Below the pieces are notes generated by a model. That model did not search any database, was not told where the DNA came from, and worked only from the letters and a program-made list of their open reading frames with translations. A stretch of DNA of 64,000 bases from an uncultured Methanomassiliicoccales archaeon (GTDB taxonomy: Archaea; Thermoplasmatota; Thermoplasmata; RBG-16-68-12; JAJISG01): NCBI GenBank assembly GCA_964347325.1, contig CAYFYA010000010.1, positions 1,041 through 65,040 of the forward strand, given 5' to 3'. This document shows, piece by piece, positions 6,845 through 64,000 of the stretch (the stretch's first letter is position 1; each line of letters starts with the position of its first letter). A program made the translations under genes and the position numbers.

Positions 6845-6952
6845 CGTCTCACGCGAAGACTGTCTTGGGAGGGGATGGGGGCCTATTACTCTTTCTTGGG
6901 ACGGTGACCTCGGCCGTGGGCGAGAGCGCACACCCGGAGAGTTGCCCGCAAG

Positions 6953-35352: not shown

Positions 35353-35494
35353 CTCCTGACAACCAACGGGGTGAAGACATCTTAAGTCTTGCCAAACGAT
35401 GTCGGAATGGGCCGTCTGGCGTGGCCAGTTCACATTCATCCTACCCTCCCGAAAAGTGTTATAACCCGCCCATCCATCTTCGACTGGCGCCAGG

Positions 35495-38684: not shown

Positions 38685-41600
38685 TCAGAGCCAGTCCTCT
38701 TCCTCAGGCACTTTCTCAGGCCCCTCGCCCGACGGGCGCCTCGGCCTAACGTACCGGAGGTAGAGATAGGCAGAGAGGCCTGCCAGGGCGGCTACAGCCG
38801 CTATGAGGGCAAGGGTCAGGGGCTGCGTCACCTGGTCCGTGATGGGCAGCGCCTGGGTCTTGACGATCACATCCACGTTGGCGCTCACGCCCCCATATGT
38901 CACGCTGATGGTGCCAGTCCCAGTCTCGCTCCCCGCCGTGAAGGTGGCAGACCAGCCCGCTTCGGTGGCCTCGATGGTTCCGATAGTGGTCGTCCAGTCG
39001 AAGGTGGCATCTGCTATCTGGTTCCCGTGCTGATCCTTCGCCACGGCTATCAGGTCGGCACTTCCGCCGGTCAACACCTCCAGCGTGCTCGGGCTCACCG
39101 TGATCTCGTCCACGGGGCCGGGGACTATCCTGACGACGGCAGTGGCATTCATGTCGTCCAAGGCCACTCTCACCGTCCCGGTCCCGGTGATGGTCGAGGC
39201 TGTGAAGAGGCCCGTGGCGTCGATGGTCCCTATGCCACCGGTCGCAATCCAGTCGAAAGAACCACCGTTGACAGGGTTCCCGAACTGGTCCTGAGTCGTG
39301 GCGGTGAACTGGAGGGTATCGCCAGCCTCAACGTCGACGACTCCGGGGGCAATGGTCACCTGCTCGGGAGGACCCGGCATGACGTTCACCGTCACGTTGT
39401 CCACGAAGGTAGAGAGGCGCACCTCGAGGCTGTCCGTACCGGCCGTGGGACCAGCCAAGTAGATGATCTCGTCCCCGGAGGACGTGAGCGGGATGACGGT
39501 CCCCAGGCCATTCATGGAGGTCCACGTGAAGGTACCTCCGACGGAGTTGTTGTACGCGTCGAAGCCCACGGCGTCGAACTGGGTCGCGCCGCCCACGACG
39601 ACGTCGGCCGAGTCGGGGGACGTATCCACCCTGTCGGGGACGCCGGCTCCGACGAAGCTGAAGCCGGTAACCTTCCCGGCCTCGTCACCGACCACCAGGT
39701 ATCCGTCTCCCAGGGCGACGGAGGATGTGCTACCGGCGCTAGACAGCAGGATTGTCTGGAGGGTGGCCCCGGTAAGGGCATCCCAGACCCGCAGATTACC
39801 GTCCCAGGCTGTAAGGAACACGGATCCGTTGTTGTAGCCCACCGAGCTACCCACGGCCGCTCCGCTCAGGAAGTTGGACCAGGCCGGCGTGCCGTTGGTG
39901 GCGTGGAGGGCGTGAATCCAGCCGTTGGCTACGGCGAAGTCGAAGGTCCCGACGAAGACCATCCCGTCGGCCACCGCGGGGGAGGAGACGTCAATCAAGG
40001 CGCCCAGTCCGCTGGAGGTCCAGATGGGCGCTCCCGTGAGGGCCTCGAAGGCGTAGAGGGAACCGCCGTAATCACCGACGTAGAGGACCCCATCGACCAC
40101 CGTGGGTGCTGAGGTGACGATGGCCGCTACGGTCGTCGTCCAGATGGGCGTCCCATCGAAGGCGTCCAGGGCCACGATTCGGCCGGAGGTGTCCGCGGCG
40201 AAAACCATGCCCGCGGCGTAGGTTGGTCCCTGAAGGGTGCTCGACCCCATGGAGTAGGACCACTGGACCACGCCAGTGGTGACGTCGCTGGCTAAGATCG
40301 TCCCGACGTAGTCGGACCAGTAGACGTGCCCCACCGCCACTGCGGGGGTCGAGAAGGTCGCCGGGGCGAAGCCTGTGAAGGAGTCGGTTTGCCAGTTGGT
40401 GGTGCCTGTTGCCGCGTCGAGGGAGAACAACGAGATCCTGGTGTTCCCGCTGGTCACGAAGGTGACGTAAACACTACCGTCGGCAGCAGCGGGTGTTCCA
40501 GCGATGTTTCCGATGTCGCCCAACGTGCGCTGCCACTTCACCTCGCCGGTGCCGACATCGACGGCGTTGAGGACTCCCTCCTGCTCCGCGAAGTAGACCA
40601 TATGATCATAGATGATGGGTCCACTCCAGCGGATCGGTAGGCCTCCGACGCCCGCGACCCAACGCTGAGTCAGCGGCATCTCGAAGGGCACGGGAGCCAC
40701 GCCGCTCCTCTCCCGGTCGTGGTGGAACTGCGGCCACTCTGGTGAGGGTAGCGGCAACACCTCCAGTCTCAGCAAGGCCGTATCATCCTCCCCCGGGTCG
40801 GCCGCGGAAACGGCCCTCACGATCAGTGTATCCAAAGTGTCTAGGGGGGCGTCCGATGGCACTTCCACCCTCACTACGATGGGGCTATCCTGCAGTCCTG
40901 GCACCAATCCAGTGTCGGGAGTGCCGTCGCTATCGGTATCTGTCAACGGCGTGACCCCGTCGGAGTCCAGCAGGGTGACTGTCCAGCCCATTGTTGAGGT
41001 GCCGGTGACCTGGAACAAGTCCTCCAGTCCCCCCGTGTTGGTTATGTTGACGTTGAAGCTCACGGAGGCTCCCGGTTCGCTGCTGCTGTAGACGTCTGGA
41101 CCCGCGGCGACACCTGGCAAGGGGACCAGGGTCGTTATTGAAGCCTGGGCAACGGCGCTCGGGTCCCCCACGGACGTGATGTTCAAGGTGAGGAGGTCGG
41201 CCTGACCGGCAGTCGCTCCCGCATCTACGTCGACGCGGACGATGATGTCTAGAGACGCCCCCGACGGGATGGGTCCCGTGTCCACGAAGGTGTCGTTGTT
41301 TGTGTCATTCAGGGGGGTCACGCCGTCCGCGTGGTAGAAGGTCCTCGTCCACCCATAGGGGACGCCGACTCCCGCAACGTTGAAGGTGTCTTCTGCCAGG
41401 AAGGCGCCACGGTTCCTGACCTCCAGGCTATACTCCGCCGTCCCACCGGGAACGGCGACCCCAGTCACGCTCGATGGTGTGATGCTCGCGCCGAACTCGG
41501 GAGGCATGATCCATTCCAGAAGCCTATCCATCAGCAGCTCCCGGTCGGCAGCGGTGCTGACGCCCTCGTAGTTGAAGGCCAGGTAGGCGATTGCGTAGGC

Positions 41601-44600
41601 GCCGTCCTCCACCCGCAGTATGGCCGACTGGGAAGATGGGCCCGATGCGTACTGGGCGCTGGTAACGGCGGGTGAGATGGGGTCCACTACGCTGGGCCAT
41701 ATGTTGTTGTTGGCCCCGTCACCTCCGTTGATGAGGATGTTTAGGCCATCGCCGATGGGATCGCTCGACACACCGATCACGTTGTCGGTGGGAGCATTGT
41801 CGCTAACGTAGATCGCGTGGAGGTAGTCGGAGTAGAAGCTGCTTCCGGACCAGTAGAAGCCGATGTCCTGGCCCGAGAGGATGAGGCGTCCTCCCGCATC
41901 AAGGAACTGGGCGACCTCGGCCTGAGCCGACGGGTTAAACCCGTTTGAGGGCGTGTGCCAGATGAGTAGGTCGAAGCCTTGAAGGTCTGCCAGGACGGGG
42001 TTCCCCTGGGCAGCCACCTCCCAGTAATCGAAGGGTTGGGCAAGGGCGCTCAGGGCACTCACGTAGTAGCTTTCGTAGGAGTTCCCGAAGTCGTCATCCA
42101 CCAAGAGTATCGGTGGTACGTCCAGCGTCGTGAAGCTGTAGTACGAAGAGGCGTTGTCGTCCACCGCCGTGTTGCCGGCTGTGTCCGTGGACTCGACCTC
42201 GAAGAAGTAGGTCGTGTTGGGCTGCAGCATCGTAAGGTTCACGCTATGGGACGACGTGAACCCATCAATGGTCACGAGATCGGGCGGCGTCGTGGTGTTG
42301 TAGCGGACGACGCTCGTGGCACTCTCATCTGTGAGCCAGGTGATGCGGGCGGAGTTGTGGGTTATGTCCGTCGCCTGCACATTTGACACTAATGGGGGAT
42401 CGTCGTCGATGGTTGCGGTGTCGTTCACCGTGGCTGGCGGGCTGGCGTCGACGTAGGTGACGTTTATGGTCCCGCCGTTCACCACGGTGAGGTTACCGTC
42501 GTCCGGTGCGGATGGGGTCAGGGTTAGCTGGATGGTACCGCTGAAGACGCCGGAGTCGGTACCGACCTCTAGGAGGGTCACGCTCTCACTGTCTGTCAGA
42601 CTGCTGACCGCGGTTACCAGGGCGCTGTCTTGGGTGAGGTTGTCCAGGTCGAGGTCGATGTCTGCCAGGAAGATGTCCGCTGAGGCGCTGGACCTGTAGA
42701 GCGGCTTGCTCCACGACACGTCCCCGTCCGAGGTTGGACTGCCCCCATGGGAAATCACAATGGCGTAGTCCTGGGTGGGACTACCGGGAACATTAACGGC
42801 GGTGACATTGACTGTGTAGACCCCAAGCCGTAGCTCGGAGGTTGGGATGTAGACGTTCTCCAGGTTGTTCAGCGGGTCTCCCGAGCCACCAGGCACGCTC
42901 CACCCGTTGCTGAAGTGGTTGCCGTAGTAGGTGGTCCCGTCTGGCGCCGTCACCACAAGGTCCAGGTCATTCACAAGCACGGGCGAGCTGCCCGGCATCC
43001 CAGGTACATCGGTCCACGCCAGGGAGACCTTGAAGGGCTTGTCCATCCTGGCGACAGGAATGGAGTAGGTGAAGGTGGTGCCCGTGTCTAGGGCCTGCTG
43101 CTGGTCCTCGTAGAAGACAGCACCGGTGAAGTTCAGGAGGTTCTCCAGGTTCACGCGCCCCCAGCCTTCGTCGAAGTTGGGGATAGGACCTGTGGAATCG
43201 GATCCAAGACTTGGACTAGCCACCGGCGGCATGTCCACGGCACCGTTTACTAGGGCCGCTTTAGTCAGGGCCGGACTCGGGTCGACGGCGAAGACGTTCC
43301 TGTAGTACTCCACGAAGAGGGCCGCACTCCCGGAGACGATTGGACCCGACATGCTTGTCCCGCCGCAGTACTCGTGGTACGAGTCGATGTTCTGCCAGCA
43401 CCAGCCGGGTGAGGATTGGCTGGAGAGCAGTGAGGCGATCCACGTTCCCGGGGCAACGATCTCGGGCTTGATTCGCCCGTCGGTAGTCGGACCTCGGCTG
43501 CTGAACCCAACCATGGCGTCGATGTTGTCAGCGGGCCACTGCCCCATTATTGGAACCGTTGGCCTGTAGTTCAGGGATGCGCCCGTAGCGATGACGTTCT
43601 TCGCGTTGGCAGGGCTTCCCGTGGTCGAAGGGCCAGGACCATCGTTGGCGGCAGAGAACTCGAAGATGATGGGTTGATCTCCACCCGCGACGTTGTCGGC
43701 GTCCCTAACCAGCTCGTCGAAGATCGCGTCGTCAGCGATATAATCGCCCAGGGTGAAGATCCGCCAGCTGTTGCTGTGGATTATGGTACCATTGCCAACG
43801 GCATCACGGCCCATCTGGTAATAGTCTGGGAAGACCCAGAAGCCGGAGTCATCGAAGATCCGCTGGTTCACTATGAGGGCCTCGGGGGCCATGCCGAGGC
43901 CGTAGGAGAAGCCGTCACCGTCCGTCAGGCCCGTAGCGTTGTCGCCCGCGATTATGCCTGCAACGTGTGTGCCGTGGCCCACCCTGTCCTCGGCCGAGAT
44001 GAGGCTGCCGTAAGGGATGTGTGCCACGGTCCTGTTGTCGAGCTCTGGGTGCATGTCTCCACCCACTCCGGGGTCGTCCGCGCCGGTGTCCACTCCGGTG
44101 TCCGCCACCGCCACGGTGACGTTCTGGCCAGACAGTCCTAAGGAGGCGAGCCAGTCAATGTAACCAGGGGTGATGGGGGAGTAGTGGCCCGCCGCGATCT
44201 GTCCCGCCACCTCGTCCACCAGCTCAGGTCGCAGGAAGGGCTCGATCCAGTACACCCCAGGCAGGTTGGCCAGCTCGGGGAGGTTGGCCGCATCTGTGGA
44301 GAACCGAACCAGCTTGAGGCCGCCGACAGTCATGGTCTGGTAGTGGAGGATGACCATTCCCTCGAGGGCCTCCCAGGTCCGCGGGGGTGCCGACGCCTGG
44401 ACCAGTACGGTGAAGTCCCTAGATCCTGCAGAGGAGATCGACGGGAACCCGCCGGAGAGGGGCTGCCCCGAGTCAGGCAGGGCTGTGAAGCCGGGGAAGC
44501 TCAAACGGGACGGCCCTAGGGCCACGTCTCGGTGCTTGGGCACCTGCACATCAAGAGATGCTACGCTGCCGAATTCCTGGTACACCAGCCGGCTTATTCG

Positions 44601-45197
44601 ATAGGCGGGATGGTAGATCCCAACCCACTGGATGAAGGGAGCCATGCCAGTCGCTCGAACGGTGGAGGGATCCATCTCCACGATGAAAGCAAAGTTGGGG
44701 ATGTAGTTGTAGAAACGGACACCCTGGGCTTCGAGGGCTTCGACCCACTCGGCCTTGACGGGCCCTACGAACTGTACGATGTGAAGCCCCGGCTCACCCA
44801 CTTCATAGGAGTCGATGTGCAGGTTCGGAGCGATCTCTGGTTCGCCCGCCGCAGTATCGAAGGTAACTCCGCCCAAGGAGATGGTCGTCCTGTCGACAAG
44901 CAGGCGAACGACCAGATTCCTGGCCTGAAGAGTCAGCGCGGTGGAGGGAGGCACGGAAGCCAAAACGAAACCGCCATAGTCCACAACTGGCTCCACGCCC
45001 GCCCGGCTAAGAGCGGCACGCTCCTCCGGTGAGGAACTGCGGAGCAGGACATCGAAGCCCGTGCCGAGCTCGCCACGCTTCAGAGCTGGCTGTGGTTCCG
45101 CCGCCACGGGGGACAGAACGCCAAGGAAGGTCGTCACCACCATCAATGTGGCTAAAATCAGAGACACGATACGGAGAGAACCGCATTCTGAGGACAT
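38685..45197 (-). CDS. Giant (2170 aa) cell-surface subtilisin (S8) with Ig/FN3-like domains, a PQQ-repeat beta-propeller and a C-terminal TM anchor
   Basis: Signal peptide. S8 triad VAVADTGVD / GHGTHVAGIIAG / GGTSMSGP (roughly nt 43250-44230). PQQ-like repeats (VYFAEQEGVLNAVDVGTGEVKWQ, LYVGDYGGSLYAFEALTGAPIWT; roughly nt 39650-40730). C-terminal TM plus an RYVRPRR tail. Many sequons. Confidence 0.85.
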   Translation of the reverse strand: MSSECGSLRIVSLILATLMVVTTFLGVLSPVAAEPQPALKRGELGTGFDVLLRSSSPEERAALSRAGVEPVVDYGGFVLASVPPSTALTLQARNLVVRLLVDRTTISLGGVTFDTAAGEPEIAPNLHIDSYEVGEPGLHIVQFVGPVKAEWVEALEAQGVRFYNYIPNFAFIVEMDPSTVRATGMAPFIQWVGIYHPAYRISRLVYQEFGSVASLDVQVPKHRDVALGPSRLSFPGFTALPDSGQPLSGGFPSISSAGSRDFTVLVQASAPPRTWEALEGMVILHYQTMTVGGLKLVRFSTDAANLPELANLPGVYWIEPFLRPELVDEVAGQIAAGHYSPITPGYIDWLASLGLSGQNVTVAVADTGVDTGADDPGVGGDMHPELDNRTVAHIPYGSLISAEDRVGHGTHVAGIIAGDNATGLTDGDGFSYGLGMAPEALIVNQRIFDDSGFWVFPDYYQMGRDAVGNGTIIHSNSWRIFTLGDYIADDAIFDELVRDADNVAGGDQPIIFEFSAANDGPGPSTTGSPANAKNVIATGASLNYRPTVPIMGQWPADNIDAMVGFSSRGPTTDGRIKPEIVAPGTWIASLLSSQSSPGWCWQNIDSYHEYCGGTSMSGPIVSGSAALFVEYYRNVFAVDPSPALTKAALVNGAVDMPPVASPSLGSDSTGPIPNFDEGWGRVNLENLLNFTGAVFYEDQQQALDTGTTFTYSIPVARMDKPFKVSLAWTDVPGMPGSSPVLVNDLDLVVTAPDGTTYYGNHFSNGWSVPGGSGDPLNNLENVYIPTSELRLGVYTVNVTAVNVPGSPTQDYAIVISHGGSPTSDGDVSWSKPLYRSSASADIFLADIDLDLDNLTQDSALVTAVSSLTDSESVTLLEVGTDSGVFSGTIQLTLTPSAPDDGNLTVVNGGTINVTYVDASPPATVNDTATIDDDPPLVSNVQATDITHNSARITWLTDESATSVVRYNTTTPPDLVTIDGFTSSHSVNLTMLQPNTTYFFEVESTDTAGNTAVDDNASSYYSFTTLDVPPILLVDDDFGNSYESYYVSALSALAQPFDYWEVAAQGNPVLADLQGFDLLIWHTPSNGFNPSAQAEVAQFLDAGGRLILSGQDIGFYWSGSSFYSDYLHAIYVSDNAPTDNVIGVSSDPIGDGLNILINGGDGANNNIWPSVVDPISPAVTSAQYASGPSSQSAILRVEDGAYAIAYLAFNYEGVSTAADRELLMDRLLEWIMPPEFGASITPSSVTGVAVPGGTAEYSLEVRNRGAFLAEDTFNVAGVGVPYGWTRTFYHADGVTPLNDTNNDTFVDTGPIPSGASLDIIVRVDVDAGATAGQADLLTLNITSVGDPSAVAQASITTLVPLPGVAAGPDVYSSSEPGASVSFNVNITNTGGLEDLFQVTGTSTMGWTVTLLDSDGVTPLTDTDSDGTPDTGLVPGLQDSPIVVRVEVPSDAPLDTLDTLIVRAVSAADPGEDDTALLRLEVLPLPSPEWPQFHHDRERSGVAPVPFEMPLTQRWVAGVGGLPIRWSGPIIYDHMVYFAEQEGVLNAVDVGTGEVKWQRTLGDIGNIAGTPAAADGSVYVTFVTSGNTRISLFSLDAATGTTNWQTDSFTGFAPATFSTPAVAVGHVYWSDYVGTILASDVTTGVVQWSYSMGSSTLQGPTYAAGMVFAADTSGRIVALDAFDGTPIWTTTVAAIVTSAPTVVDGVLYVGDYGGSLYAFEALTGAPIWTSSGLGALIDVSSPAVADGMVFVGTFDFAVANGWIHALHATNGTPAWSNFLSGAAVGSSVGYNNGSVFLTAWDGNLRVWDALTGATLQTILLSSAGSTSSVALGDGYLVVGDEAGKVTGFSFVGAGVPDRVDTSPDSADVVVGGATQFDAVGFDAYNNSVGGTFTWTSMNGLGTVIPLTSSGDEIIYLAGPTAGTDSLEVRLSTFVDNVTVNVMPGPPEQVTIAPGVVDVEAGDTLQFTATTQDQFGNPVNGGSFDWIATGGIGTIDATGLFTASTITGTGTVRVALDDMNATAVVRIVPGPVDEITVSPSTLEVLTGGSADLIAVAKDQHGNQIADATFDWTTTIGTIEATEAGWSATFTAGSETGTGTISVTYGGVSANVDVIVKTQALPITDQVTQPLTLALIAAVAALAGLSAYLYLRYVRPRRPSGEGPEKVPEEEDWL

Positions 45198-54081: not shown

Positions 54082-55365
54082 CTACAATCTCCTGATACCA
54101 GCTGAGGCTAGGCTGACGAGCCCCGCCACCGCAATCAGGGCCCCACTTGCGACGAGCAGGGCTTGGACCCCGATGTGCTCCGCCAATAGTCCGACTGCGG
54201 CCATGGAGATCGGTTGGAGTCCCTGAGCCATAACGGCCCGAGCGGAGAACACACGACCCTGGAGGTCCAGGGGCACCTCTCTCTGGAAGACAGTGGAGGA
54301 GGATATGGAAGCTAGTGAGACCGCAAGCCCCATAGCCCCTAAACAACCGATGGACAGGAAGAAGAGTGTCGACCAGCCGAAGAGGATGTAAGCGGCACCG
54401 AAGCTCACGATTGCAACGATGATGTAGAGGCCGAAGTGCCTTCGGAGCTTCACAGCGGCGAAGATCAGGCTCCCACCAAGCAGCCCCGCGCCCAGGCTTG
54501 CGAAGAGGAAACCAAAACCCTCCGATCCCAGACCGAACGTCCCAGACGCCACCACTGGGAGCAGAATGACGAGGGGAGCGATGAAGAAATTCGTGAGGGC
54601 GAAGAGACCGAGCAGGGTGATCAGGGCCGGCCTTCGGCGAAGGAAGCCGAACCCCGTGGCGATATCGGCGAGAACTGTCTTCTCCGTCTGCGATCGAGGA
54701 GAGGGGAATGCAACGATGAGGAGTGTTGCGGCCGCGACGAAGAAGGTAGCGGCATCAACCCAAAGGGTGAGACTCGCCCCGAGGAAGGCAACCATGATGC
54801 CTCCGAGGGCGGGACCAAAGACAGTGCTCGTGCCGTGAGAGATTTGCAGGAGCGAGTTTGCCCGAGACAGCTGCTCCTTGTGGACGATGTTCGGGACGGA
54901 GGCGAGGAGGGACGTAACGTGGAAGATGGCCCCAAAGCCAAGGACTCCTGAGAAGGCGTACAGGTGCCAGACTTGGAGTGCGTTGAAGGCCAGCAACGAG
55001 GCGATGGTGGCCATCACTACCCCCGCAGCGCCATCCAGAACGAGCATGACCTTACGCCGGTCCCACCGGTCGACGTAGGCACCTGCGAAGGGACCCGCGA
55101 GAACGCGGGGAATCGTGCCAGCGATGGCTACGGTGGCCATGAGGACAGTCGATCCTGTCTCGAGCCAGACCCACCATACGATAGCGACGTAGGAGATTCC
55201 GCTCCCCAGCAGGGAGACAGTCTGTCCTAGCCATACTAGCAAGAAGGTCCGATTTCTGAGCGGGTACACGTTAAGAGACGCAGGGCCCTGTAGACCAGCC
55301 ACGCAGGGTGTATTCGCGAGGCCGCAATAAGCCTTCGCCGCGCTACACGATGCACCTGCCTCCAC
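54082..55365 (-). CDS. MFS transporter (12 TM)
   Basis: MFS signature-like G..VDRWDRRK between TM2 and TM3. 12 predicted helices. Confidence 0.8.
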   Translation of the reverse strand: MEAGASCSAAKAYCGLANTPCVAGLQGPASLNVYPLRNRTFLLVWLGQTVSLLGSGISYVAIVWWVWLETGSTVLMATVAIAGTIPRVLAGPFAGAYVDRWDRRKVMLVLDGAAGVVMATIASLLAFNALQVWHLYAFSGVLGFGAIFHVTSLLASVPNIVHKEQLSRANSLLQISHGTSTVFGPALGGIMVAFLGASLTLWVDAATFFVAAATLLIVAFPSPRSQTEKTVLADIATGFGFLRRRPALITLLGLFALTNFFIAPLVILLPVVASGTFGLGSEGFGFLFASLGAGLLGGSLIFAAVKLRRHFGLYIIVAIVSFGAAYILFGWSTLFFLSIGCLGAMGLAVSLASISSSTVFQREVPLDLQGRVFSARAVMAQGLQPISMAAVGLLAEHIGVQALLVASGALIAVAGLVSLASAGIRRL

Positions 55366-56597: not shown

Positions 56598-57614
56598 CTA
56601 GGCTACCACAATCCCCCGCAGCAGACTCGGATCACCGCCCTCCAGGAGACGGAAGCCCTCGTTGATATCCTCCAATGAGAAGCGGTGGCTCACCATATCC
56701 CCGACCTTCAGCAGCCCCCGGGCGACTAAGTCAATGACCCTGGGAAAGTCCTGGAGGCCGCAGCCGAGAGATCCCATGACCTCCATCTCCCTGAACATGA
56801 GCTTGGCTCCACTCAGGGATACGTCCTTATGAGTATAGCCGACAACAACCAGTCTTCCACCCCACCTAAGCGAGTTAAAGGCCTGCTGAATTGTGGTCGG
56901 ATTGCCAATGACCTCCATCGCCACATCTACGCCCCCATTACTAAGCCTCCGGACTTCCTTTGGCGCATCCTCGACACTGGAGGCGTCGACCGTTTCGAAG
57001 GCGCCGAACTCTCGTGCCAGGCGCAGCTTCTGAGGAATCAGGTCTATGGCGATCACCTTCGCCCCGACGAGGGCGGCCATCTGCACCGTCGCAAGGCCAA
57101 GGCCGCCGCAGCCGTAGACGGCGACGGTCTGACCGGGATTGACCTGCGCCCGGTTGACGACGGCGTGATAGGGGGTTGATATGGCGTCGCTGACGATGGA
57201 GCCCTCCTCTAGAGGAACGGAATCAGGAAGGGGAAACGCGGCGGACTCAGGTACGGTTACGTACTCCGCAAACCCACCATCCCGATGATTGCCCAGCATG
57301 ACCATCTGGCGGCAGAGGGTGCCCCGGCCCTGCCTGCAGTATTCGCAATGGCCGCAGGGGATCACAGGAGGCACCAGGACCCGTTGTCCTTCTTCCGGAC
57401 CCCCCCTTCCCGCGGCTTCGATGGTCCCGCTGATTTCGTGTCCCAGGATGAGGGGGGGCTTCTTGAAGGTAGGAACGCCGTGGAGGTAATGTAGATCCGT
57501 CCTGCAGATCCCGCAGGCTGCCACCTTGACAAGCACCTCTCCCGCTCCAGCCTTCGGCTTCTCGACCTTCTCGACCTCCAGCTCCTTCCCGCCGCGGAAG
57601 ACGGCGGCTCTCAT
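56598..57614 (-). CDS. Zinc-dependent medium-chain alcohol dehydrogenase (candidate hydroxyacyl-CoA dehydrogenase of the pathway)
   Basis: GHE-like zinc site (CGICRTDLH, GHEISG), structural-zinc Cys cluster (CGHCEYCRQGRGTLC), Rossmann AVYGCGGLGL. The start ATG at 57614 overlaps the upstream stop by 1 nt. Confidence 0.85.
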   Translation of the reverse strand: MRAAVFRGGKELEVEKVEKPKAGAGEVLVKVAACGICRTDLHYLHGVPTFKKPPLILGHEISGTIEAAGRGGPEEGQRVLVPPVIPCGHCEYCRQGRGTLCRQMVMLGNHRDGGFAEYVTVPESAAFPLPDSVPLEEGSIVSDAISTPYHAVVNRAQVNPGQTVAVYGCGGLGLATVQMAALVGAKVIAIDLIPQKLRLAREFGAFETVDASSVEDAPKEVRRLSNGGVDVAMEVIGNPTTIQQAFNSLRWGGRLVVVGYTHKDVSLSGAKLMFREMEVMGSLGCGLQDFPRVIDLVARGLLKVGDMVSHRFSLEDINEGFRLLEGGDPSLLRGIVVA

Positions 57615-58390
57615 CATCGATCCCTCCAAGCGGGCTTCCTCTTCTCCATGAAGGCCTGCAGGCCCTCCGTGGCATCCTCCGTCGCCATGAGCTCCTCGAG
57701 GTAGATCTGCTCCGCTCCACGAAGGACATCTTCGGGGCTAACGGGGAGGGATCCCTGCAGCGCTCTCTTGGCTAGTCTCAGGGCGGCACCGCTATACCCC
57801 TCGAGTTCCTCACACACTTCCTCCACCTTGGATTTCAGTTCTTCTCGAGGGAAGACCGCGTTGACCATCCCTAGCTCGACCGCCTCTTCGGCAGTCACGC
57901 TCCGGCCCGTGAGGATCAAGTATGCGGCCCGCCGACTGCCTATAAGCACTGGGTAGATGGCGGCCCCGAAGGGCGGAAAGTGGGCGAGTTTGATCTCTGG
58001 CTGGCCGAGGACGGTATCGGTGCTCGCATAGACAAGGTCGCACGCCATGGCGACCTCTAGCCCTCCGCCGAGACAGTGACCGTGGACCTGGGCGACCGTC
58101 ACCCCTTCGAAGCCAAGGAGACGCAAAAGTCCCTGGTTAAAGCTGCGCAGCATCGACTCCACCTTGTCCTTCGTGTGGTCGGCGACGTCCACGCCCGCGG
58201 AGAAGGTCTTCCCCTCCCCCCTCACCAGGAGGACCTTCGCACCGCTGCCGGAAGCCTCCTCCACCGCCCCTTTGAACTCATCTAGCATCTCGACGTTGAG
58301 GACGTTGAGGGGCGGCCGGTTGAGGACTATGGACGCTCTCCGCTCGCCCAACTCGAGGCCGATGAAGCGGTAACCCATCCTCTTCCCCAC
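57614..58390 (-). CDS. Enoyl-CoA hydratase/isomerase (crotonase) family protein
   Basis: 258 aa. Oxyanion-hole segments (KTFSAGVDV, HGHCLGGGLEVAMACD). Confidence 0.85.
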   Translation of the reverse strand: MGKRMGYRFIGLELGERRASIVLNRPPLNVLNVEMLDEFKGAVEEASGSGAKVLLVRGEGKTFSAGVDVADHTKDKVESMLRSFNQGLLRLLGFEGVTVAQVHGHCLGGGLEVAMACDLVYASTDTVLGQPEIKLAHFPPFGAAIYPVLIGSRRAAYLILTGRSVTAEEAVELGMVNAVFPREELKSKVEEVCEELEGYSGAALRLAKRALQGSLPVSPEDVLRGAEQIYLEELMATEDATEGLQAFMEKRKPAWRDR

Positions 58391-58410
58391 GGAGGGATAC
58401 GACCCGGCTA

Positions 58411-59208
58411 CTAAGAGCTTCCGCCGCGGCGTTCCAGTCGCCAGTGGCCCAGGAAGGCCGCCCCCATGGCGCCCGCGTACTGGGACTCGGGGCTCAGGTT
58501 CACAGGCCCGCCGAGCTTCATCTCCAGGGCTTTGACCATGCCGGGGTTCATTGAGAGGCCGCCGGTGAGGGTTATCTCCTCCTCCACACCGACCTGCCTG
58601 AGTAGGGCCAGCACCCGGTCGGCTATGGAAAGGTGGGCGCCCATGACGATGTCCTCAGCCTTCTTGCCCTGAGTGACGTGGTTGATGACCTCCGACTCGG
58701 CCAGGACGGCGCAGATGCTGCTAATGGGCTGGGGATCGGTGGACCGCAAGGACGCCTCCGCCAGTTCAGACAGCTCCATCTCAAGGGCCTTCGCCACCCT
58801 CTCGAGGAAGCGACCCGCCCCCGCCGCACATCGGTCGTTCATTCGGAACTTGATGACACGTCCGTTCTCGTCGATCCTCATGGCTCGGCTGCTCTGGGCC
58901 CCGATGTCCAGGACGCACCTAGTCTTAGGAAAGAGGAGCCTAGCCCCCCGCGCGTGGCAGGTGATCTCCGTGATCTGCAAGTCCCTCGCAGGGAATGCGT
59001 AGCGTCCGTACCCCGTGGTGGCCACGTAGGCGATCTGGTCCCTGCTCAGGCCCTCCGCGGTCAGGACCTCCTGAAAGGCACTGCCAGCCGCCTTCTCCAA
59101 CAACGGCCCGGTCCTGATGCTCGACCGAACGAGGACGCTTCCCTGGTCGTCCATTAGCACCGACTTGGTCGTCCCCGCCCCGATGTCGATTCCAGCTGTG
59201 ATGGACAT
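58411..59208 (-). CDS. BadF/BadG/BcrA/BcrD-type ATPase (HgdC-like electron-transfer activator subunit), copy 2
   Basis: ASKHA fold N-terminus GIDIGAGTTK, cluster-bridging Cys contexts MNDRCAAGAGRFLE and SICAV. 265 aa. Confidence 0.85.
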   Translation of the reverse strand: MSITAGIDIGAGTTKSVLMDDQGSVLVRSSIRTGPLLEKAAGSAFQEVLTAEGLSRDQIAYVATTGYGRYAFPARDLQITEITCHARGARLLFPKTRCVLDIGAQSSRAMRIDENGRVIKFRMNDRCAAGAGRFLERVAKALEMELSELAEASLRSTDPQPISSICAVLAESEVINHVTQGKKAEDIVMGAHLSIADRVLALLRQVGVEEEITLTGGLSMNPGMVKALEMKLGGPVNLSPESQYAGAMGAAFLGHWRLERRGGSS

Positions 59209-60029
59209 CAGCTTCCCTCCACCTTCTGCGGGGCCGCCCGCGGGGCCGCACCCCTGGCCCTCTCAAGGGCGAAGAGCGCCGCTCCCAGGCATCCCATGTA
59301 CTGGGAGAGATCGCTCACGTTGATCTTCGTCTCGAACCGCTCCTCCAGGCTCCGAACCATCCCGACGTTCCTGGAGACACCTCCGGTGAAGGTGACCTCG
59401 GGTTCGATCCCGATGCGTCGGACGAGGGCGATGGTCCTGCCGGCTATCGCACTGTGCACCCCCTGCAGGATGTCCTCCACCCTCTCACCCCTAGCCAGGT
59501 GGGACACAATCTCCGACTCGACGAAGACCGTGCACACGTTGGTGATACGAATGCCCTTCGTCGACTCCAATGATACGGGCCCTATCTCGTCCAGGGTAAG
59601 ATCCAGGACCGATGCGGAGTTCTCCAGAAACCTGCCCGTCCCGGCGGCGCACTTATCGTTCATGCAGAAGTCCATGACTTCCCCAGTATCGCTCACCTTG
59701 ATGGCTTTCGTGTCCTGGCCTCCGATGTCCACCAGGGTCCGCGTCTTCGGGAAGAGGAAGTGTGCTCCCTTGGCGTGACAACTGATCTCGGTCACCTGGG
59801 TGTCCCCGAAGGCGATCTTATAGCGCCCGTACCCGGTGCCAATAACGTAGCCCAGGTCCCTCTCGGAGATACCGCTTGCGTCGAGGACCTCCTCATAGGC
59901 CTTCTCGGAGGCGGTTGTGACGTTGGCCCCCGTGGGCCTCAGGCTCTTTCCCACCACTTCGGCCCCACCATTCAGGACGATGGCCTTCGTCGTCGTGGAA
60001 CCCGCATCCACTCCCGCAACGTACATCAT
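59208..60029 (-). CDS. BadF/BadG/BcrA/BcrD-type ATPase (HgdC-like activator subunit), copy 1
   Basis: GVDAGSTTTK, MNDKCAAGTGRFLE, CTVFVESE. 273 aa. Overlaps its neighbours by 1-4 nt. Confidence 0.85.
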   Translation of the reverse strand: MMYVAGVDAGSTTTKAIVLNGGAEVVGKSLRPTGANVTTASEKAYEEVLDASGISERDLGYVIGTGYGRYKIAFGDTQVTEISCHAKGAHFLFPKTRTLVDIGGQDTKAIKVSDTGEVMDFCMNDKCAAGTGRFLENSASVLDLTLDEIGPVSLESTKGIRITNVCTVFVESEIVSHLARGERVEDILQGVHSAIAGRTIALVRRIGIEPEVTFTGGVSRNVGMVRSLEERFETKINVSDLSQYMGCLGAALFALERARGAAPRAAPQKVEGS

Positions 60030-61264
60030 GACCCCCTCACAATCCGCTGGTGCTCTAGGGACTCAAAGAAAGCATCCACCCGGTTCCTCAGCTGAGCCTC
60101 TGAGAAGTACCGCGGGTCGGCTAGGTCCGACTCTATCATAAGGGTCGGGATTCCGAGCTCGTGGCTGAAGACCTCCCGGAAGTCCGCCTGGCCTACGGAG
60201 AAGGAGCGGCACGATTTGACCGAGTGGATCACCAGGGCATCGGCCTGGAACTCCTTCACGTACTGATGGAGCAGGGCTGACCTCTTGCTCAGATTCCAGT
60301 TGGTGTAGCAGTTGATGACGTATTCCGCAACGCTCTCCATGGGACGGCTGGGATCGTGTCGGATCCCTGTCTCGAAGAGGCCGCCGACCTTGGAGTAGGT
60401 GGAGGCCACGCCGGTCACCCCCCAGGCCTTGAAGAGCTCCCAGAAGGACCGGAAGTGGGGCCAGCAGGGGGGTCCCTCGTAGATGACTCGGAACTTCTCG
60501 GTCTCGACGGGTCCCACGCCCGCCCTGCTCCGCTCTTCCATCTCATCGATGACGACCCTGTAGTAGTCGATGCACTCCTTCGTCCCCCGCAGGACGTTGA
60601 TGGGTGCCATGAAAAAGACCGCCTCGAAGTAGGCGTCGAAGGGAGAGGGTTGCAAGCGAGCCATGGACAGGAGCTCCGCCCACAGATCCTCGGCCTGACG
60701 GGAGTACTCCATGGTCTCCTTGAGCTTAGCCTCATCGAGGGACTTGCCCGTCAGCTCTTCGCAGTAGGCCACCAGTTCCCACAGCTGCTGGGTGACATAC
60801 TCCACGTCCTGCTCATAGGTAGCCTCATCCCTCAGATAAGGGACGTCCAGCAGGAACATGGGTACGTCGTAGAAATGGGCCAGGGCCTCGAACCACTTGA
60901 TGAAGGTGTTGCAGCCGGAGAAGTTGCAGACCAGGAGGTCCGGTCTGGGGATGCGGCCAAGGGGCGTCGCCCCATCCCCCAGGTAGACGCCGATGTCATT
61001 CTTCACGTACCCGCAGACATCGCTGGAGTAGCCGATGTCCTCGGCCTTGAGGATGTTGTCCCCGGCGACCCGCTTGACACCGCATTGAAGGGCGTTGATT
61101 TCAGGGTAGACCGGTCTGAACCCAAAAGGACGGAGGACCTCCACGACGTTGCCGGGGACGAAGAGGTACGCGATGGGGCCGTCGGTCTTCTCCAGGTCGC
61201 TGTAGTAGGCGCCCATCAGCTTCCTCTGCACGACCTTCCCGGCATCCTTCAGCTTCAGCTCCAC
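60026..61264 (-). CDS. 2-hydroxyacyl-CoA dehydratase / benzoyl-CoA reductase family subunit (HgdA/BcrC-like)
   Basis: 412 aa. Conserved Cys contexts (ALQCGVKR, SDVCGYVK, LLVCNFSGCN) typical of the HgdA/BcrC family. Confidence 0.8.
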   Translation of the reverse strand: MELKLKDAGKVVQRKLMGAYYSDLEKTDGPIAYLFVPGNVVEVLRPFGFRPVYPEINALQCGVKRVAGDNILKAEDIGYSSDVCGYVKNDIGVYLGDGATPLGRIPRPDLLVCNFSGCNTFIKWFEALAHFYDVPMFLLDVPYLRDEATYEQDVEYVTQQLWELVAYCEELTGKSLDEAKLKETMEYSRQAEDLWAELLSMARLQPSPFDAYFEAVFFMAPINVLRGTKECIDYYRVVIDEMEERSRAGVGPVETEKFRVIYEGPPCWPHFRSFWELFKAWGVTGVASTYSKVGGLFETGIRHDPSRPMESVAEYVINCYTNWNLSKRSALLHQYVKEFQADALVIHSVKSCRSFSVGQADFREVFSHELGIPTLMIESDLADPRYFSEAQLRNRVDAFFESLEHQRIVRGS

Positions 61265-61273
61265 GGTTTCACC

Positions 61274-62422
61274 TCACGCGAACAGTATCGACTCCACGAA
61301 GGTCTCCACTTGCATTCTGGAAGACTCGAAAGTGCTCATCTTCTCCTCGAACTCCAGGTGGAGGTAGGGGACGTCGGCGGCCTCCAGGGCCTCCTTGTAG
61401 AGGACGTAGTCGTACAGGGCGGGCTCGCAGAACTTGGCGGTGGCGAAGATGACGCCCTCCGCCTTCGACTCGTCGATCCAGTCCATAATTGCCTCCCGCC
61501 TCCGCTTCTCTGGGAACCGGACTGAAGAAAGGCGCGCCCTGTCCAGGTAGCTCTGGGCCAGGTCCCTGAGTGGATTCCCGTTTACCGGGACAGGGGCCGT
61601 GTACCACCGGTAGCCAGGGAGGAGCTCATCGTCCACGACGTAGCAGCCCGCCTCCTCCACGATCCGGAGCAGCTCGAGGGGAGGTTGCTCACAGAAGGAG
61701 CCCATCATCAACACTCGGATGTTGTCCCTCGCCTTTTCGGACCTGCCCTCTACCGCTTCCAGAGCCCCCTCGAGATAGGCGACGTGGTCCTCCGCCGGCA
61801 TGTGTGCTGCCGCCCTGACGAGGAGGTAGGCGTCGTGGGCCGACAGCTGCCAGGGTGTCTCCCTTCGGATGTCGTAGACGCTCTGAATGAGATCCCGCTG
61901 ACGGTTGTACAGCTCCACGCTCTCCCGGAGGGAGTCATCGTCGGCCGTCTCTCCCGAGAGTTTGCACAACCTGTTCCTGAACCTCTCCAGCTCCCTCTCG
62001 AGGTAGTTGACCGAGGCATCGGAGAACACGTTCTGCGGCAGGTGGAGGTACTCCGTCATCACCTGCGGGAAGTTCCTTGCCCAGACGCCAGACAGGTTTC
62101 GCGCGACGTCGCAGATGTCGGTGAAGACCATTCCGTCGAGGACCCCGGTGTTGCCCCGCAGCCCCATCTCGAGTGTGCTCCTCGTGACGGAACAGACGAA
62201 GGACTGGATCCTGGAATCGGCGTAGTCCACCTCTAGGAGGCCCCATGCGCCCATGATTCCCACCGGCAAACATCCGGCCGCGTGGATGACCTCCTGTGGC
62301 ACGTAAACGGGAAAGTGGCCGATGGCCCTTCCACCAGTCTCCTCCTTCCACCGGGACACGTACCCGAAGGACAGGTCCTCCGCCAGCTTCCTTGCGGAGC
62401 CTAGGTACTCGGACTCGGCCAA
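61274..62422 (-). CDS. 2-hydroxyacyl-CoA dehydratase / benzoyl-CoA reductase family subunit (HgdB/BcrB-like)
   Basis: 382 aa. Cys contexts HAAGC, SFVCS, TDICD, AKFCEPA. Confidence 0.8.
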   Translation of the reverse strand: MAESEYLGSARKLAEDLSFGYVSRWKEETGGRAIGHFPVYVPQEVIHAAGCLPVGIMGAWGLLEVDYADSRIQSFVCSVTRSTLEMGLRGNTGVLDGMVFTDICDVARNLSGVWARNFPQVMTEYLHLPQNVFSDASVNYLERELERFRNRLCKLSGETADDDSLRESVELYNRQRDLIQSVYDIRRETPWQLSAHDAYLLVRAAAHMPAEDHVAYLEGALEAVEGRSEKARDNIRVLMMGSFCEQPPLELLRIVEEAGCYVVDDELLPGYRWYTAPVPVNGNPLRDLAQSYLDRARLSSVRFPEKRRREAIMDWIDESKAEGVIFATAKFCEPALYDYVLYKEALEAADVPYLHLEFEEKMSTFESSRMQVETFVESILFA

Positions 62423-62487
62423 GGCATGCCTCCTGGGGCTACAGAGTAGTTATGTTGTAGCTACATCATAAACCTATCCAATACGAC

Positions 62488-62499
62488 GTTATATATTTC
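62488..62499 (+). promoter_or_regulatory. TATA box (gttatatatttc) in the divergent region between the reductase operon and the crotonase gene. A 10-bp palindrome TGTAGCTACA lies at about 62462-62471.
   Basis: AT-rich element about 75 nt upstream of the 62574 ATG, with a perfect palindrome upstream. Both read from the sequence. Confidence 0.4.
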
Positions 62500-62573
62500 G
62501 GCTGGCCGAAGGATAAGGCCTCTCCCCAAGGGACAGTCGGGAAAGTGATATAGCAGTCCCCTGATGCCTCAGC

Positions 62574-63536
62574 ATGTCTACGGAGCCCATCAAGGAGAGG
62601 TCTCCCGAGGACCTCGCGTTTAAGGAGATCATCTACGAGAAGGCCGACTGGGTCGCTCGAATCACCATCAACAGACCCGAGGTCTACAACGCCTACAGCA
62701 CGCTGACCCTGCGGGAGATGCAGGAAGCCTTCAGAGACGCTGCCTACGACGATGGAGTGGGCGTCCTGGTCCTCACCGGAGCGGGGGAGAAGGCCTTCTG
62801 CACCGGCGGAGACGTGAAGGAGTACTCTGAGGAGTACACTAGGAGGCCCCACGACTACTGGAAGTACATGGTGGAGTTTCAGGGCGCCATCGACATGCTG
62901 CGCAACTGCGGGAAGCCCACTATAGCTCGGTTGAATGGCATCGTCGCTGGGGGCGGCAATGAGTTCCAGATGGCCTGCGACCTGGCAATCGCAGCAGACC
63001 ATGTGGAGATCATGCAGGTCGGGACGAGGGTGGGAAGCGTGGCCGCCGGTGGGGCATCCCAGTGGCTCCCCATCATCGTGGGAGACAGACGGGCGCGAGA
63101 GATCCTCTACCTCTGCGAGCGAATCCCTGCTGCCAAGGCTCTGGATTGGGGGCTGGTGAACCAGGTTGTGCCGTACAAGGAGCTGGATAGCGCCGTGGCC
63201 GAGATGTGCGAGAAGCTCCTGGACAAGTTCCCCGAGTGCATGAGGTACACCAAGCAACAGGTCAACTTCTGGAAGGACCTGGTCTGGTACTCCACCATCG
63301 GGCACGCGAGAGACTGGCTGTCCATCCACTTCGCTAGCCAAGAACCGTGGGAGGGGATGCGGGCTTTCGTGGAGAAGAGGCCGGCAGAGTACCGACGCCT
63401 GAGGGAGGAGGCGGCCACCGGAGGGTCGCCATCCTTCGTCTGGGGGGCCTATGAGAAGGAGTGCGGTGAGTGTGGGGCGAAGGGCCTTCCGTCTGGGTTT
63501 GAGTACTGCGGTTCATGCGGCGCGAAGATCGAGTAG
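62574..63536 (+). CDS. Crotonase-fold enzyme (enoyl-CoA hydratase / MenB / ring-hydrolase-like) with a C-terminal CxxC...CxxC zinc ribbon
   Basis: Crotonase core (LTGAGEKAFCTGGDV, ARLNGIVAGGGNEFQMACD) plus a terminal KECGECGAKGLPSGFEYCGSCGAKIE. Confidence 0.8.
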   Translation: MSTEPIKERSPEDLAFKEIIYEKADWVARITINRPEVYNAYSTLTLREMQEAFRDAAYDDGVGVLVLTGAGEKAFCTGGDVKEYSEEYTRRPHDYWKYMVEFQGAIDMLRNCGKPTIARLNGIVAGGGNEFQMACDLAIAADHVEIMQVGTRVGSVAAGGASQWLPIIVGDRRAREILYLCERIPAAKALDWGLVNQVVPYKELDSAVAEMCEKLLDKFPECMRYTKQQVNFWKDLVWYSTIGHARDWLSIHFASQEPWEGMRAFVEKRPAEYRRLREEAATGGSPSFVWGAYEKECGECGAKGLPSGFEYCGSCGAKIE

Positions 63537-63548
63537 TGTCGGAAGCGA

Positions 63549-64000
63549 TTACCGGAAGTGTCTTCCTAGCCATCTCCTCTCGAGGAGGACCTTCGCCCAG
63601 TGCCACAGACGGCCAGGCCTCCTCATTGATATCGCGGGTTCGGCCTCCCCATAGAAGTTGCCTCTAACCATCCCGGCCCGACCGAAGCCCGTCTCCAAGA
63701 AGCACATCCCGTATCCGTCCCACCGGTGCAATCCTCCGCCGACGATCTCGGAGACGATGTTTTGGCATGCAGTCTTAGACTGGCCCTCTGCGAATACCCC
63801 GGCCTTGGGTAGAGTCGGGACGTTACCGGATGGTGTCTTGATGCTCGTGACGTCGCCGACGGCGTAGACATCGTCAAAGGATGACTGCATCGTATGCCGG
63901 TCTACGGGAATCCAGGGACCGTCCTTCGTCAGGTCGGAGTTCCTCACGGCATCGCACGTCGTATGGGGTGGTATCGCCACTAGGAGGTCGTACTCCATCT
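63549..64000 (-). CDS. FAD-dependent pyridine-nucleotide-disulfide oxidoreductase (SQR/NDH-2-like), C-terminal fragment. The gene continues beyond the window end.
   Basis: Second FAD-binding GD motif (VYAVGDVTSI) and downstream regions typical of sulfide:quinone oxidoreductase / type II NADH dehydrogenase. Truncated by the window. Confidence 0.5.
   Translation of the reverse strand, partial: MEYDLLVAIPPHTTCDAVRNSDLTKDGPWIPVDRHTMQSSFDDVYAVGDVTSIKTPSGNVPTLPKAGVFAEGQSKTACQNIVSEIVGGGLHRWDGYGMCFLETGFGRAGMVRGNFYGEAEPAISMRRPGRLWHWAKVLLERRWLGRHFR

Follow-up and report, generated by a model that had tools for sequence, protein, structure and literature searches.

The 64,000-nt stretch of contig CAYFYA010000010.1 analyzed here (hereafter, the window), from an uncultured Methanomassiliicoccales archaeon, carries at positions 56598-63536 six open reading frames (ORFs) on the minus strand and one divergent ORF on the plus strand, whose products resemble an ATP-dependent aryl-CoA reductase and enzymes from the pathway that degrades benzoyl-CoA. 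All seven ORFs had been proposed in a first-pass annotation made from the sequence alone; we recovered each of them at the same position, and the Pfam domains agree with the assigned families. The locus comprises the following features:

61274..62422, minus strand: gamma subunit (BcrC/MbdN/HadC-like, predicted electron-transfer Fe-S subunit), 382 aa, Pfam HGD-D
60026..61264, minus strand: beta subunit (BcrB/MbdO/HadB-like, predicted substrate-binding and catalytic subunit), 412 aa, Pfam HGD-D
59208..60029, minus strand: alpha ATPase, also called ATPase 1 (BcrA/MbdQ-like), 273 aa, Pfam BcrAD_BadFG
58411..59208, minus strand: delta ATPase, also called ATPase 2 (BcrD-like), 265 aa, Pfam BcrAD_BadFG
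57614..58390, minus strand: Dch-like crotonase, putative dienoyl-CoA hydratase, 258 aa from a GTG start, Pfam ECH_1
56598..57629, minus strand: Had-like zinc-dependent alcohol dehydrogenase (Zn-ADH), 343 aa, Pfam ADH_N and ADH_zinc_N
62574..63536, plus strand: BadI/MenB/Oah-like crotonase, putative ring-cleaving beta-ketoacyl-CoA hydrolase (hereafter, the hydrolase), 320 aa, Pfam ECH_1
63462..63518, plus strand: zinc-ribbon motif of the hydrolase, C297-x2-C300-x11-C312-x2-C315
62423..62573, no strand: divergent intergenic region that separates the hydrolase gene from the reductase operon, 151 bp

The reductase genes follow the order bcrC-B-A-D, as in Thauera; the pairings HgdB/BcrB and HgdA/BcrC used in the first-pass annotation mixed two nomenclatures, the first gene being BcrC/HadC-like and the second BcrB/HadB-like. 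The six minus-strand genes form one tight co-directional operon, although only three of the five junctions overlap: the beta and alpha genes share the 4 nt ATGA, the alpha and delta genes overlap by 1 nt (TGATG), and the hydratase and ADH genes overlap by 4 nt (ATGA) if the ADH starts at its ATG or by 16 nt if it starts at a TTG. The gamma and beta genes are separated by a gap of 9 nt, and the delta and hydratase genes by 20 nt from the GTG start or 32 nt from an alternative ATG at position 58378, which would yield a protein of 254 aa. The tight operon that had been described from six genes overlapping by 1-4 nt was thus upheld, and the continuous overlap was not. The 151-bp divergent region contains a TATA-like AAATATATAA box and is a putative promoter, and the TTG start of the gamma-subunit gene is preceded by GGAGG. 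GC content is uniform across the window, the genes around the module are archaeal housekeeping genes (encoding ATP-dependent DNA ligase, SerRS, PurA, PurB, NcsA, geranylgeranyl reductase and a DUF835 protein), and identical or near-identical proteins are found in metagenome-assembled genomes (MAGs) labeled Thermoplasmata or Thermoplasmatota.

For every component, the top specific match in NCBIfam was the corresponding model of the benzoyl-CoA pathway (BcrC, BcrB, BcrA, BcrD, Dch, Had, and BadI/Oah), the equivalogs for the canonical reductase being TIGR02263/02260/02259/02261. The scores were:

gamma subunit, 382 aa: BcrC 329.8 bits (cutoff 421.2); also HadC 226, BzdN 144
beta subunit, 412 aa: BcrB 357.8 bits (cutoff 486.6); also HadB 209, BzdO 112
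alpha ATPase, 273 aa: BcrA, C-terminal part, 211.5 bits (cutoff 578)
delta ATPase, 265 aa: BcrD 189.6 bits (cutoff 312.9)
Dch-like crotonase, 258 aa: Dch 162 bits (cutoff 292.5)
Had-like Zn-ADH, 343 aa: dearomat_had 241.6 bits (cutoff 338.7); next IolM 207.5
hydrolase, 320 aa: BadI 205.9 bits (cutoff 467.6); MenB 205; Oah 185.9 (cutoff 464.5)

As a calibration, we scored a proven aryl-CoA reductase, the 3-methylbenzoyl-CoA reductase MbdONQP (MBR), and a proven 2-hydroxyacyl-CoA dehydratase (HAD), the Had system, on the same canonical Bcr models. The BcrB model gave 358 bits for the window protein, 214 for MbdO and 126 for HadB; the corresponding values for window, Mbd and Had proteins were 330, 229 and 180 on the BcrC model, 212, 222 and 157 on the BcrA model, and 190, 119 (MbdP) and 127 (HadI) on the BcrD model. 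The window proteins thus outscore MBR on three of the four models (BcrB, BcrC and BcrD). Among solved structures, the nearest relatives of the beta, gamma and alpha subunits are the MBR subunits MbdO, MbdN and MbdQ (PDB 9g87/9gai): the beta subunit matches MbdO with 266 bits (HadB 169, BzdO 111), the gamma subunit matches MbdN with 279.5 bits (HadC 188.7, BzdN 135.4), and the alpha ATPase matches MbdQ with 336 bits (HadI 253, HgdC 235, with Bzd not among its PDB matches).

We collected relatives of the beta subunit by an exhaustive search of 1.84 billion representatives, which yielded 2319 relatives. Of the ten best, two exceed the equivalog cutoff for BcrB (P0126, 815 bits; P0124, 630 bits) and for that reason served as canonical references; they are 42-43% and 47% identical to the window protein. 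Annotated plasmids, searched for canonical bcr genes, held only distant HAD- or Bzd-like genes (26-31% identity). A BcrB tree was then built by neighbor-joining from 128 sequences, including MbdO, HadB and BzdO (the Mbd, Had and Bzd references were taken from PDB alignments and lack their N-termini), with bootstraps of 100 replicates on a reduced taxon set. Canonical BcrB, the Mbd group and the window family joined in one superclade, apart from the HAD-like radiation, in 99 of 100 replicates with corrected distances (95/100 in an earlier bootstrap). The window family formed its own clade in 94/100; the canonical clade (P0126, P0124 and P0138) excluded it in 100/100 and the Mbd group did so in 98/100, while a grouping with HadB, the single named dehydratase reference in the tree, occurred in 0/100.

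The residues agree with this placement. In the beta subunit the cluster cysteines are C84, C118 and C352 and the conserved glutamate is E55 (in YPEINALQ); the gamma subunit has three conserved cysteines at cluster-ligand positions and is 41% identical to a canonical BcrC. Using reductase-signature residues derived empirically from alignment columns, we found 45 columns without variation among canonical and Mbd-group reductases; the window family retains 93-98% of them, as compared with 65% on average and 82% at most in HAD-like proteins. All eight positions that are invariant in reductases and rare in HAD-like proteins are present in the beta subunit (F35, G38, F47, V87, K88, K350, S379 and F400). 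In all tests, the four core proteins were assigned by their sequences to the Bcr/Mbd-type (Thauera-type) class I ATP-dependent aryl-CoA reductases, in agreement with the first-pass reading of the locus as a class I benzoyl-CoA reductase (BCR)-type module rather than a dehydratase, and the catalytic subunits do not fall within the dehydratase clade, the outcome named beforehand as fatal to that reading. Judged by these trees, the window enzyme is a third lineage beside the canonical Bcr/Bad and Mbd lineages, and one known from uncultured anaerobes only.

The two ATPases are 43% identical to each other, and both keep the two cluster-bridging cysteine contexts (NDKC/NDRC and CTVF/CAVL), as had been noted at first reading. 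The alpha ATPase has intact ASKHA motifs (DAGSTTTK and DIGGQDTK), is 57% identical to MbdQ, and lacks the ~170-aa insertion of canonical BcrA, so that it aligns only to residues 220-432 of the 446-aa canonical protein, to which it is 46% identical in that part. The nucleotide motifs of the delta ATPase are degenerate (TAGIDIGAGTTK, LDIGAQSSRA), like those of canonical BcrD (TAGIDVGTGAVK, LDVGALHGRA), and the two proteins share TAGID(I/V)G(A/T)G and a D(I/V)GA that replaces DIGGQD. We rejected these degenerate motifs as a novelty, canonical BcrD having the same. With canonical BcrA and BcrD taken from a contig encoding BcrC(395)-BcrB(437)-BcrA(446)-BcrD, ATPase 2 is 41% and ATPase 1 is 29% identical to BcrD; ATPase 2 groups with BcrD at 83% bootstrap, and the ATPase 1 clade grouped with MbdQ at 94% before BcrA was added. 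Each paralog is conserved across archaea and bacteria. By these comparisons the two ATPases are ancient paralogs and 1:1 orthologs of alpha and delta. A recent tandem duplication, the second outcome that would have spoken against the first-pass reading, was rejected given the 43% identity and the 83% grouping of ATPase 2 with BcrD. The distinct subclass that had been proposed from the shortness of both activators fared unevenly: the argument from length is invalid, since the characterized MBR has equally short ATPases (MbdQ, 269 aa; MbdP, 273 aa), and the separate lineage stands on the phylogeny.

The hydrolase ends in CxxC-x11-CxxC. Its crotonase core (residues 16-275) aligns with BadI and MenB along the full length, its best PDB match is MenB (186.7 bits), and it falls under the cutoffs of the BadI, MenB and Oah models alike, with a core of MenB-like fold. 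The conserved 45-residue C-terminal stretch of linker and zinc ribbon lies past the match to the BadI model and occurs in no solved homolog. An AlphaFold2 model of the protein has a mean predicted local distance difference test score (pLDDT) of 80.6, with the tail modeled as beta-hairpins at a pLDDT of 84-91; a Foldseek search with this model returned MenB/crotonase cores only, none of them covering the tail, and the ribbon itself has weak Pfam matches to DZR and Zn_Ribbon_1. The ribbon and its linker are found in 40 of 41 hydrolase orthologs from archaea and bacteria, and C297, C300, P306, C312, G313, C315 and G316 are invariant in 33 diverse homologs. Sequence conservation thus marks the ribbon, called unusual in the first-pass annotation, as a conserved hallmark of the hydrolase family and no local oddity; it could serve oligomerization or docking. 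This family is large and its sequences are well conserved: the top 120 clusters, with identities of 65-92% and lengths of 309-347 aa, bear generic names only. In databases the hydrolase appears under 'enoyl-CoA hydratase/isomerase family' or under 'naphthoate synthase'.

Scanning one genome for each species, we detected relatives in at least 157 species, all represented by MAGs and all uncultured. The relatives from Thermoplasmata are 52-93% identical, and those from at least ten bacterial phyla (Acidobacteriota, Bacteroidota/Ignavibacteria, Planctomycetota, Zixibacteria, Eisenbacteria, Marinimicrobia, Latescibacterota, Chloroflexi, Nitrospinota and Gemmatimonadota) are 55-63% identical. In the 34 loci with at least 6 kb of flank on both sides, the four reductase genes are present in 33-34, the Dch-like and the Had-like gene in 27 each, the zinc-ribbon hydrolase gene in 22, and all seven genes, at strict thresholds, in 13. 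Gene order is shuffled between phyla (Thermoplasmata and many bacterial phyla); linkage that is kept despite this shuffling is evidence that the genes work together. The Dch-, Had- and ring-hydrolase-like enzymes proposed at first reading are thus borne out as best or joint-best NCBIfam matches, below the cutoffs, with conserved linkage to the reductase.

Several features of these loci deserve mention beside the counts. A FabG-like short-chain dehydrogenase/reductase (SDR) of ~250 aa, absent from the window cluster, is encoded in 21 of the 34 loci and in 40 loci altogether (e.g., L025:5948-6700; also L084 and L086), usually between the hydrolase and the Dch-like crotonase genes, and is a candidate 3-hydroxypimeloyl-CoA or BadH-type dehydrogenase. 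Genes for indolepyruvate:ferredoxin oxidoreductase (IOR) lie a few kb from the module at L034:15283-17055, L061:15095-15751 and ~10 other loci; the IOR alpha subunit scores 709 against an equivalog cutoff of 651, and the enzyme could supply aryl-acyl-CoA or reduced ferredoxin. A xanthine-oxidase-family molybdoenzyme is encoded near the module at L061:16979-19408 and at six other loci, its top match being the alpha subunit of 4-hydroxybenzoyl-CoA reductase (642 bits, cutoff 995; XdhA 605); it may be an aromatic-pathway neighbor. Both are recurrent neighbors in a minority of loci and were not counted as part of the core module, along with acyl-CoA dehydrogenase, DUF2889, hemerythrin and a bifunctional 3-hydroxyacyl-CoA dehydrogenase/hydratase of beta-oxidation. 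A second Thermoplasmata group (L072, L075-L081), 52-54% identical, has the order hydrolase-BcrB-alpha-delta-BcrC-Dch-Had. The window's own group is nearer to Acidobacteriota copies (~62%) than to this second group, a pattern of identities that suggests that the module passed between archaea and bacteria more than once. Public names for the beta subunit conflict: it is 'benzoyl-CoA reductase subunit B' at JGI/KEGG and mostly '2-hydroxyacyl-CoA dehydratase' at NCBI.

We propose that the region encodes a class I ATP-dependent Bcr/Mbd-type aryl-CoA reductase along with the three enzymes that follow it in the benzoyl-CoA pathway, a reading of sequence data to which we assign a probability of roughly 0.72. 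Its activity, electron donor and ATP stoichiometry, like its substrate, are inferred by homology to the characterized BCR and MBR and to the BzdNO structure. The alpha/delta ATPase heterodimer would hold a bridging [4Fe-4S] cluster and accept an electron from reduced ferredoxin; hydrolysis of MgATP would then drive a very-low-potential electron to the Fe-S cluster of the gamma subunit and from there to the beta subunit and its [4Fe-4S] cluster, at which two electrons and two protons would be added to the aromatic ring of the bound acyl-CoA. The Dch-like crotonase would hydrate the resulting cyclic dienoyl-CoA, the Had-like Zn-ADH would oxidize the alcohol to a beta-keto compound, and the BadI/MenB-like crotonase would cleave the ring hydrolytically to a pimeloyl-CoA derivative destined for beta-oxidation. 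For these last three steps, the roles draw on below-cutoff best matches and on synteny.

A number of observations weigh against this proposal. All seven proteins score under their NCBIfam equivalog cutoffs; MBR likewise misses those of the Bcr models, and since this proven reductase scores lower still on BcrB, BcrC and BcrD, a missed cutoff means only that a protein is not an ortholog of the Thauera or Rhodopseudomonas enzyme. The Dch match of the Dch-like crotonase barely exceeds those of generic enoyl-CoA hydratases, and for the hydrolase the BadI and MenB scores are equal and the size is unlike that of Oah. In the phylogeny, the window family is a clade apart from every characterized enzyme, at 39-47% identity; the trees are neighbor-joining trees on simple distances, their bootstraps do not resolve the order of branching among the three reductase lineages, and ATPase 1, MbdQ and BcrA group together at just 51%. 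The cluster ligands and the catalytic glutamate of the beta subunit are common to dehydratases and thus do not discriminate. Neither an aryl-CoA ligase nor a ferredoxin gene was found in the window, whose sole AMP-forming ligase is acetate-CoA-ligase-like and lies 54 kb from the module, and a ligase occurs near the module in just 1 of 81 loci. None of the species with the window lineage in the 157-species scan is a cultured organism, and we found no biochemical or expression data for the lineage in the literature. Finally, an ATP-consuming BCR is energetically awkward in an energy-limited anaerobe (Dong et al. 2019).

The alternative that survives best keeps the class and the mechanism and changes the substrate, to a substituted benzoyl-CoA (hydroxy-, methyl- or amino-) or a heteroaromatic or partly reduced cyclic acyl-CoA; in function the family would then be a new subclass, following the example of MBR. 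It is best judged against the two nearest known systems. The canonical Bcr/Bad enzymes (Thauera aromatica BcrCBAD and Rhodopseudomonas palustris BadDEFG), represented here by the cutoff-passing P0126/L082, P0124 and L086, share with the window enzyme four subunits in C-B-A-D order, 1:1 orthology (gamma 41%, beta 42-47%, alpha 46% in the shared part, delta 41%), degenerate delta motifs, the reductase-specific residues, membership of the superclade and adjacent Dch- and Had-like genes. They differ in that the window family is a separate clade (94/100) under all four equivalog cutoffs, that its alpha subunit has 273 aa rather than the 444-446 aa of the canonical protein with its insertion, that its hydrolase is BadI/MenB-sized with a zinc ribbon instead of an Oah of ~360 aa, and that it occurs only in uncultured anaerobes, archaea included. 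MBR, in turn, resembles the window enzyme in its two short ATPases, its three-cysteine gamma cluster and its identical or near-identical cluster motifs CNTFIKW and KSCR, whereas the Mbd clade leaves out the window family (98/100), beta identity is 39%, and the closer counterpart of ATPase 2 is canonical BcrD, not MbdP. A shifted substrate would accord with the separateness of the clade, its 39-47% identity to characterized enzymes and its missed cutoffs, with the precedent of MBR as a sister lineage of shifted substrate range, with a hydrolase unlike Oah, and with the 4-hydroxybenzoyl-CoA-reductase-like molybdoenzyme or IOR genes near some loci. The window proteins are nevertheless nearer to the canonical models than MBR is, and the accessory genes of one further locus argue in the same direction.

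That locus, L086:1800-10460 of the Armatimonadetes MAG JACQGK010000430.1, encodes in order a Had-like ADH, BcrC, BcrB, BcrA (444 aa), BcrD, a GNAT protein, a zinc-ribbon hydrolase, an SDR and a Dch-like crotonase. Its reductase passes the cutoffs for BcrC (500 versus 421), BcrB (703 versus 487) and BcrD (332 versus 313), with BcrA near its cutoff (533 versus 578). The reductase subunits are only 38-46% identical between the window and this locus, while identity is 70% for the hydrolase, 55% for the Had-like ADH and 42% for the Dch-like crotonase; the accessory orthologs in L086 are also under the equivalog cutoffs. Because this accessory set is common to a canonical-type BCR and to the window type, the same downstream enzymes serve both, which argues, as far as sequence can, that the two reductases yield the same or very similar ring intermediates. 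Shared ring intermediates in turn raise the odds of benzoyl-CoA as the substrate. On balance, benzoyl-CoA itself has slightly better than even odds of being the substrate, which would otherwise be a close analog, and the alternative of a changed physiological substrate seems to us unlikely. A bolder version, in which the lineage is a third functional subclass with its own substrate range or energy coupling, paired with a hitherto undescribed ring-cleaving zinc-ribbon crotonase that replaces Oah, in energy-limited strict anaerobes including Thermoplasmata, we hold only tentatively and would sooner bet against. If it were true, an enzyme system never yet assayed would carry a large, at present mis-annotated share of the anaerobic turnover of aromatic carbon in sediments and aquifers.

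The BZD type of class I reductase (Aromatoleum BzdNOPQ, PDB 8s02), which has been reported from the archaeon Ferroglobus placidus and from Asgard MAGs, was considered as a home for the window enzyme and rejected. Identity to it is only 24%, and the Bzd models score lowest. The BzdNO structure has a six-cysteine [8Fe-9S] double cubane and, in BzdO, a His131 beside the catalytic cluster (PMC11971306). The window gamma subunit, like MbdN and HadC, has three of the six BzdN cluster cysteines and lacks the three extra ones, so the window enzyme would contain no such double cubane; and at the position of BzdO His131 the window beta subunit has Phe121, within the CNTFIKW that is identical in MbdO.

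Far less probable than a changed substrate, and in our judgment very improbable, is a 2-hydroxyacyl-CoA dehydratase (Hgd/Had/Fld/Lcd-like) that serves amino-acid fermentation and by coincidence has two activator paralogs. Many members of the family do carry the name '2-hydroxyacyl-CoA dehydratase' from the NCBI pipeline, and the resemblance to HadBC and its activator HadI (PDB 3o3m, 4eht) is real: both systems have the HGD-D fold, three-cysteine clusters in both catalytic subunits, a glutamate at the same place (E55 in HadB and in the window protein), and an ASKHA ATPase with a bridging cluster. Identity is 28%, however, HadBC belongs to another clade with a different gene context, and it lacks the reductase residues (CAYAR versus CGYVK in the window, NRSC versus VKSC, DGDQ versus ESDL), all eight of which the window protein has. 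HadI is a single homodimeric activator, as opposed to the two window ATPases, which are orthologous 1:1 to alpha and delta and encoded in the operon. The HadB and HadC scores lie well under those of BcrB and BcrC, the trees place the window family with the reductases (99/100) and never with HadB, and the module has, across phyla, Dch-, Had- and BadI-like genes instead of a CoA-transferase or a 2-hydroxyacid dehydrogenase. A chance juxtaposition, in which the hydrolase would be a menaquinone-synthesis MenB and the other crotonase and the ADH would belong to general beta-oxidation or alcohol metabolism, could point to the equal MenB and BadI scores, to the MenB proteins as best solved homologs and to hydrolase members named 'naphthoate synthase' at JGI, but is hardly credible: the accessory trio stays with the reductase in many phyla although gene order is shuffled, the MenB cutoffs are missed so widely (205 versus 380; 197 versus 343) that we rejected a MenB role, and the window ORFs tested included no further men gene.

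Almost all characterized class I BCRs come from facultative anaerobes such as Thauera, Rhodopseudomonas and Aromatoleum. The proposed reductase with its three pathway enzymes is best described as an uncharacterized member of a known enzyme system, and no new kind of system. The general claim is already published at the annotation level: class I bcr together with dch, had and oah was reported in Thermoplasmata and Bathyarchaeota MAGs by Dong et al. 2019, who called the presence of such reductases in strictly anaerobic, energy-starved sediment organisms surprising and noted that an ATP-consuming reductase is an energetic puzzle in acetogenic or fermentative anaerobes, and bcrABCD was reported in the Thermoplasmatota order 'Ca. 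Yaplasmales' in 2022 (PMC9239135), one MAG of which (L003) holds a beta-subunit copy 85% identical to that of the window. The rarity among archaea emphasized in the first-pass annotation therefore holds for characterized examples, which are few, and not for reports from MAGs. We did not find the separate lineage, the alpha/delta orthology, the zinc-ribbon hydrolase or the accessory set common with canonical-type clusters described in the literature. The window offers a clean, complete archaeal example of an inconsistently named lineage and defines a seven-gene set, including a new-looking zinc-ribbon hydrolase, and the superclade placement, the alpha/delta orthologs and the common accessory enzymes put claims of anaerobic aromatic degradation drawn from MAGs of this lineage on firmer ground.

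Scans of the window for tRNAs and Rfam families gave no matches. Outside the module, five large ORFs, spanning 371-910 aa, were match-less in the one library scanned for each: those at 4259-6931 (minus), 30942-33674 (plus), 34390-35550 (minus) and 16421-17536 (plus) had no NCBIfam match at E<=1e-15, and that at 8281-9723 (plus) had no Pfam match at E<=1e-4. At 27571-30422 (plus), a 7TM transglutaminase-associated domain is fused to an ATP-grasp of the sugar-transfer type (579 aa), in a gene that overlaps the start of a gene for a mycosin-like S8 protease (371 aa). The ORF at 38685-45197 (minus) encodes a 2170-aa protein that combines a subtilase (S8) domain with fibronectin-III and purple-acid-phosphatase-N-like domains and with PQQ-like beta-propeller repeats, and is probably a large secreted or surface protease. 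A truncated ORF at 63549-63998 (minus) adjoins the hydrolase gene and runs off the end of the window; at the matching position of a sister contig (L001, 15.6 kb) lies a gene for a Pyr_redox_2 flavoprotein of 384 aa that may resemble sulfide:quinone oxidoreductase, and after it come dodecin and FeoA/FeoB genes. On the other side of the module, 1.2 kb downstream of the operon and on the same strand, a major facilitator superfamily (MFS) transporter gene (54082-55365, minus) that is not recurrent in other loci encodes a protein with a possible role in substrate uptake.

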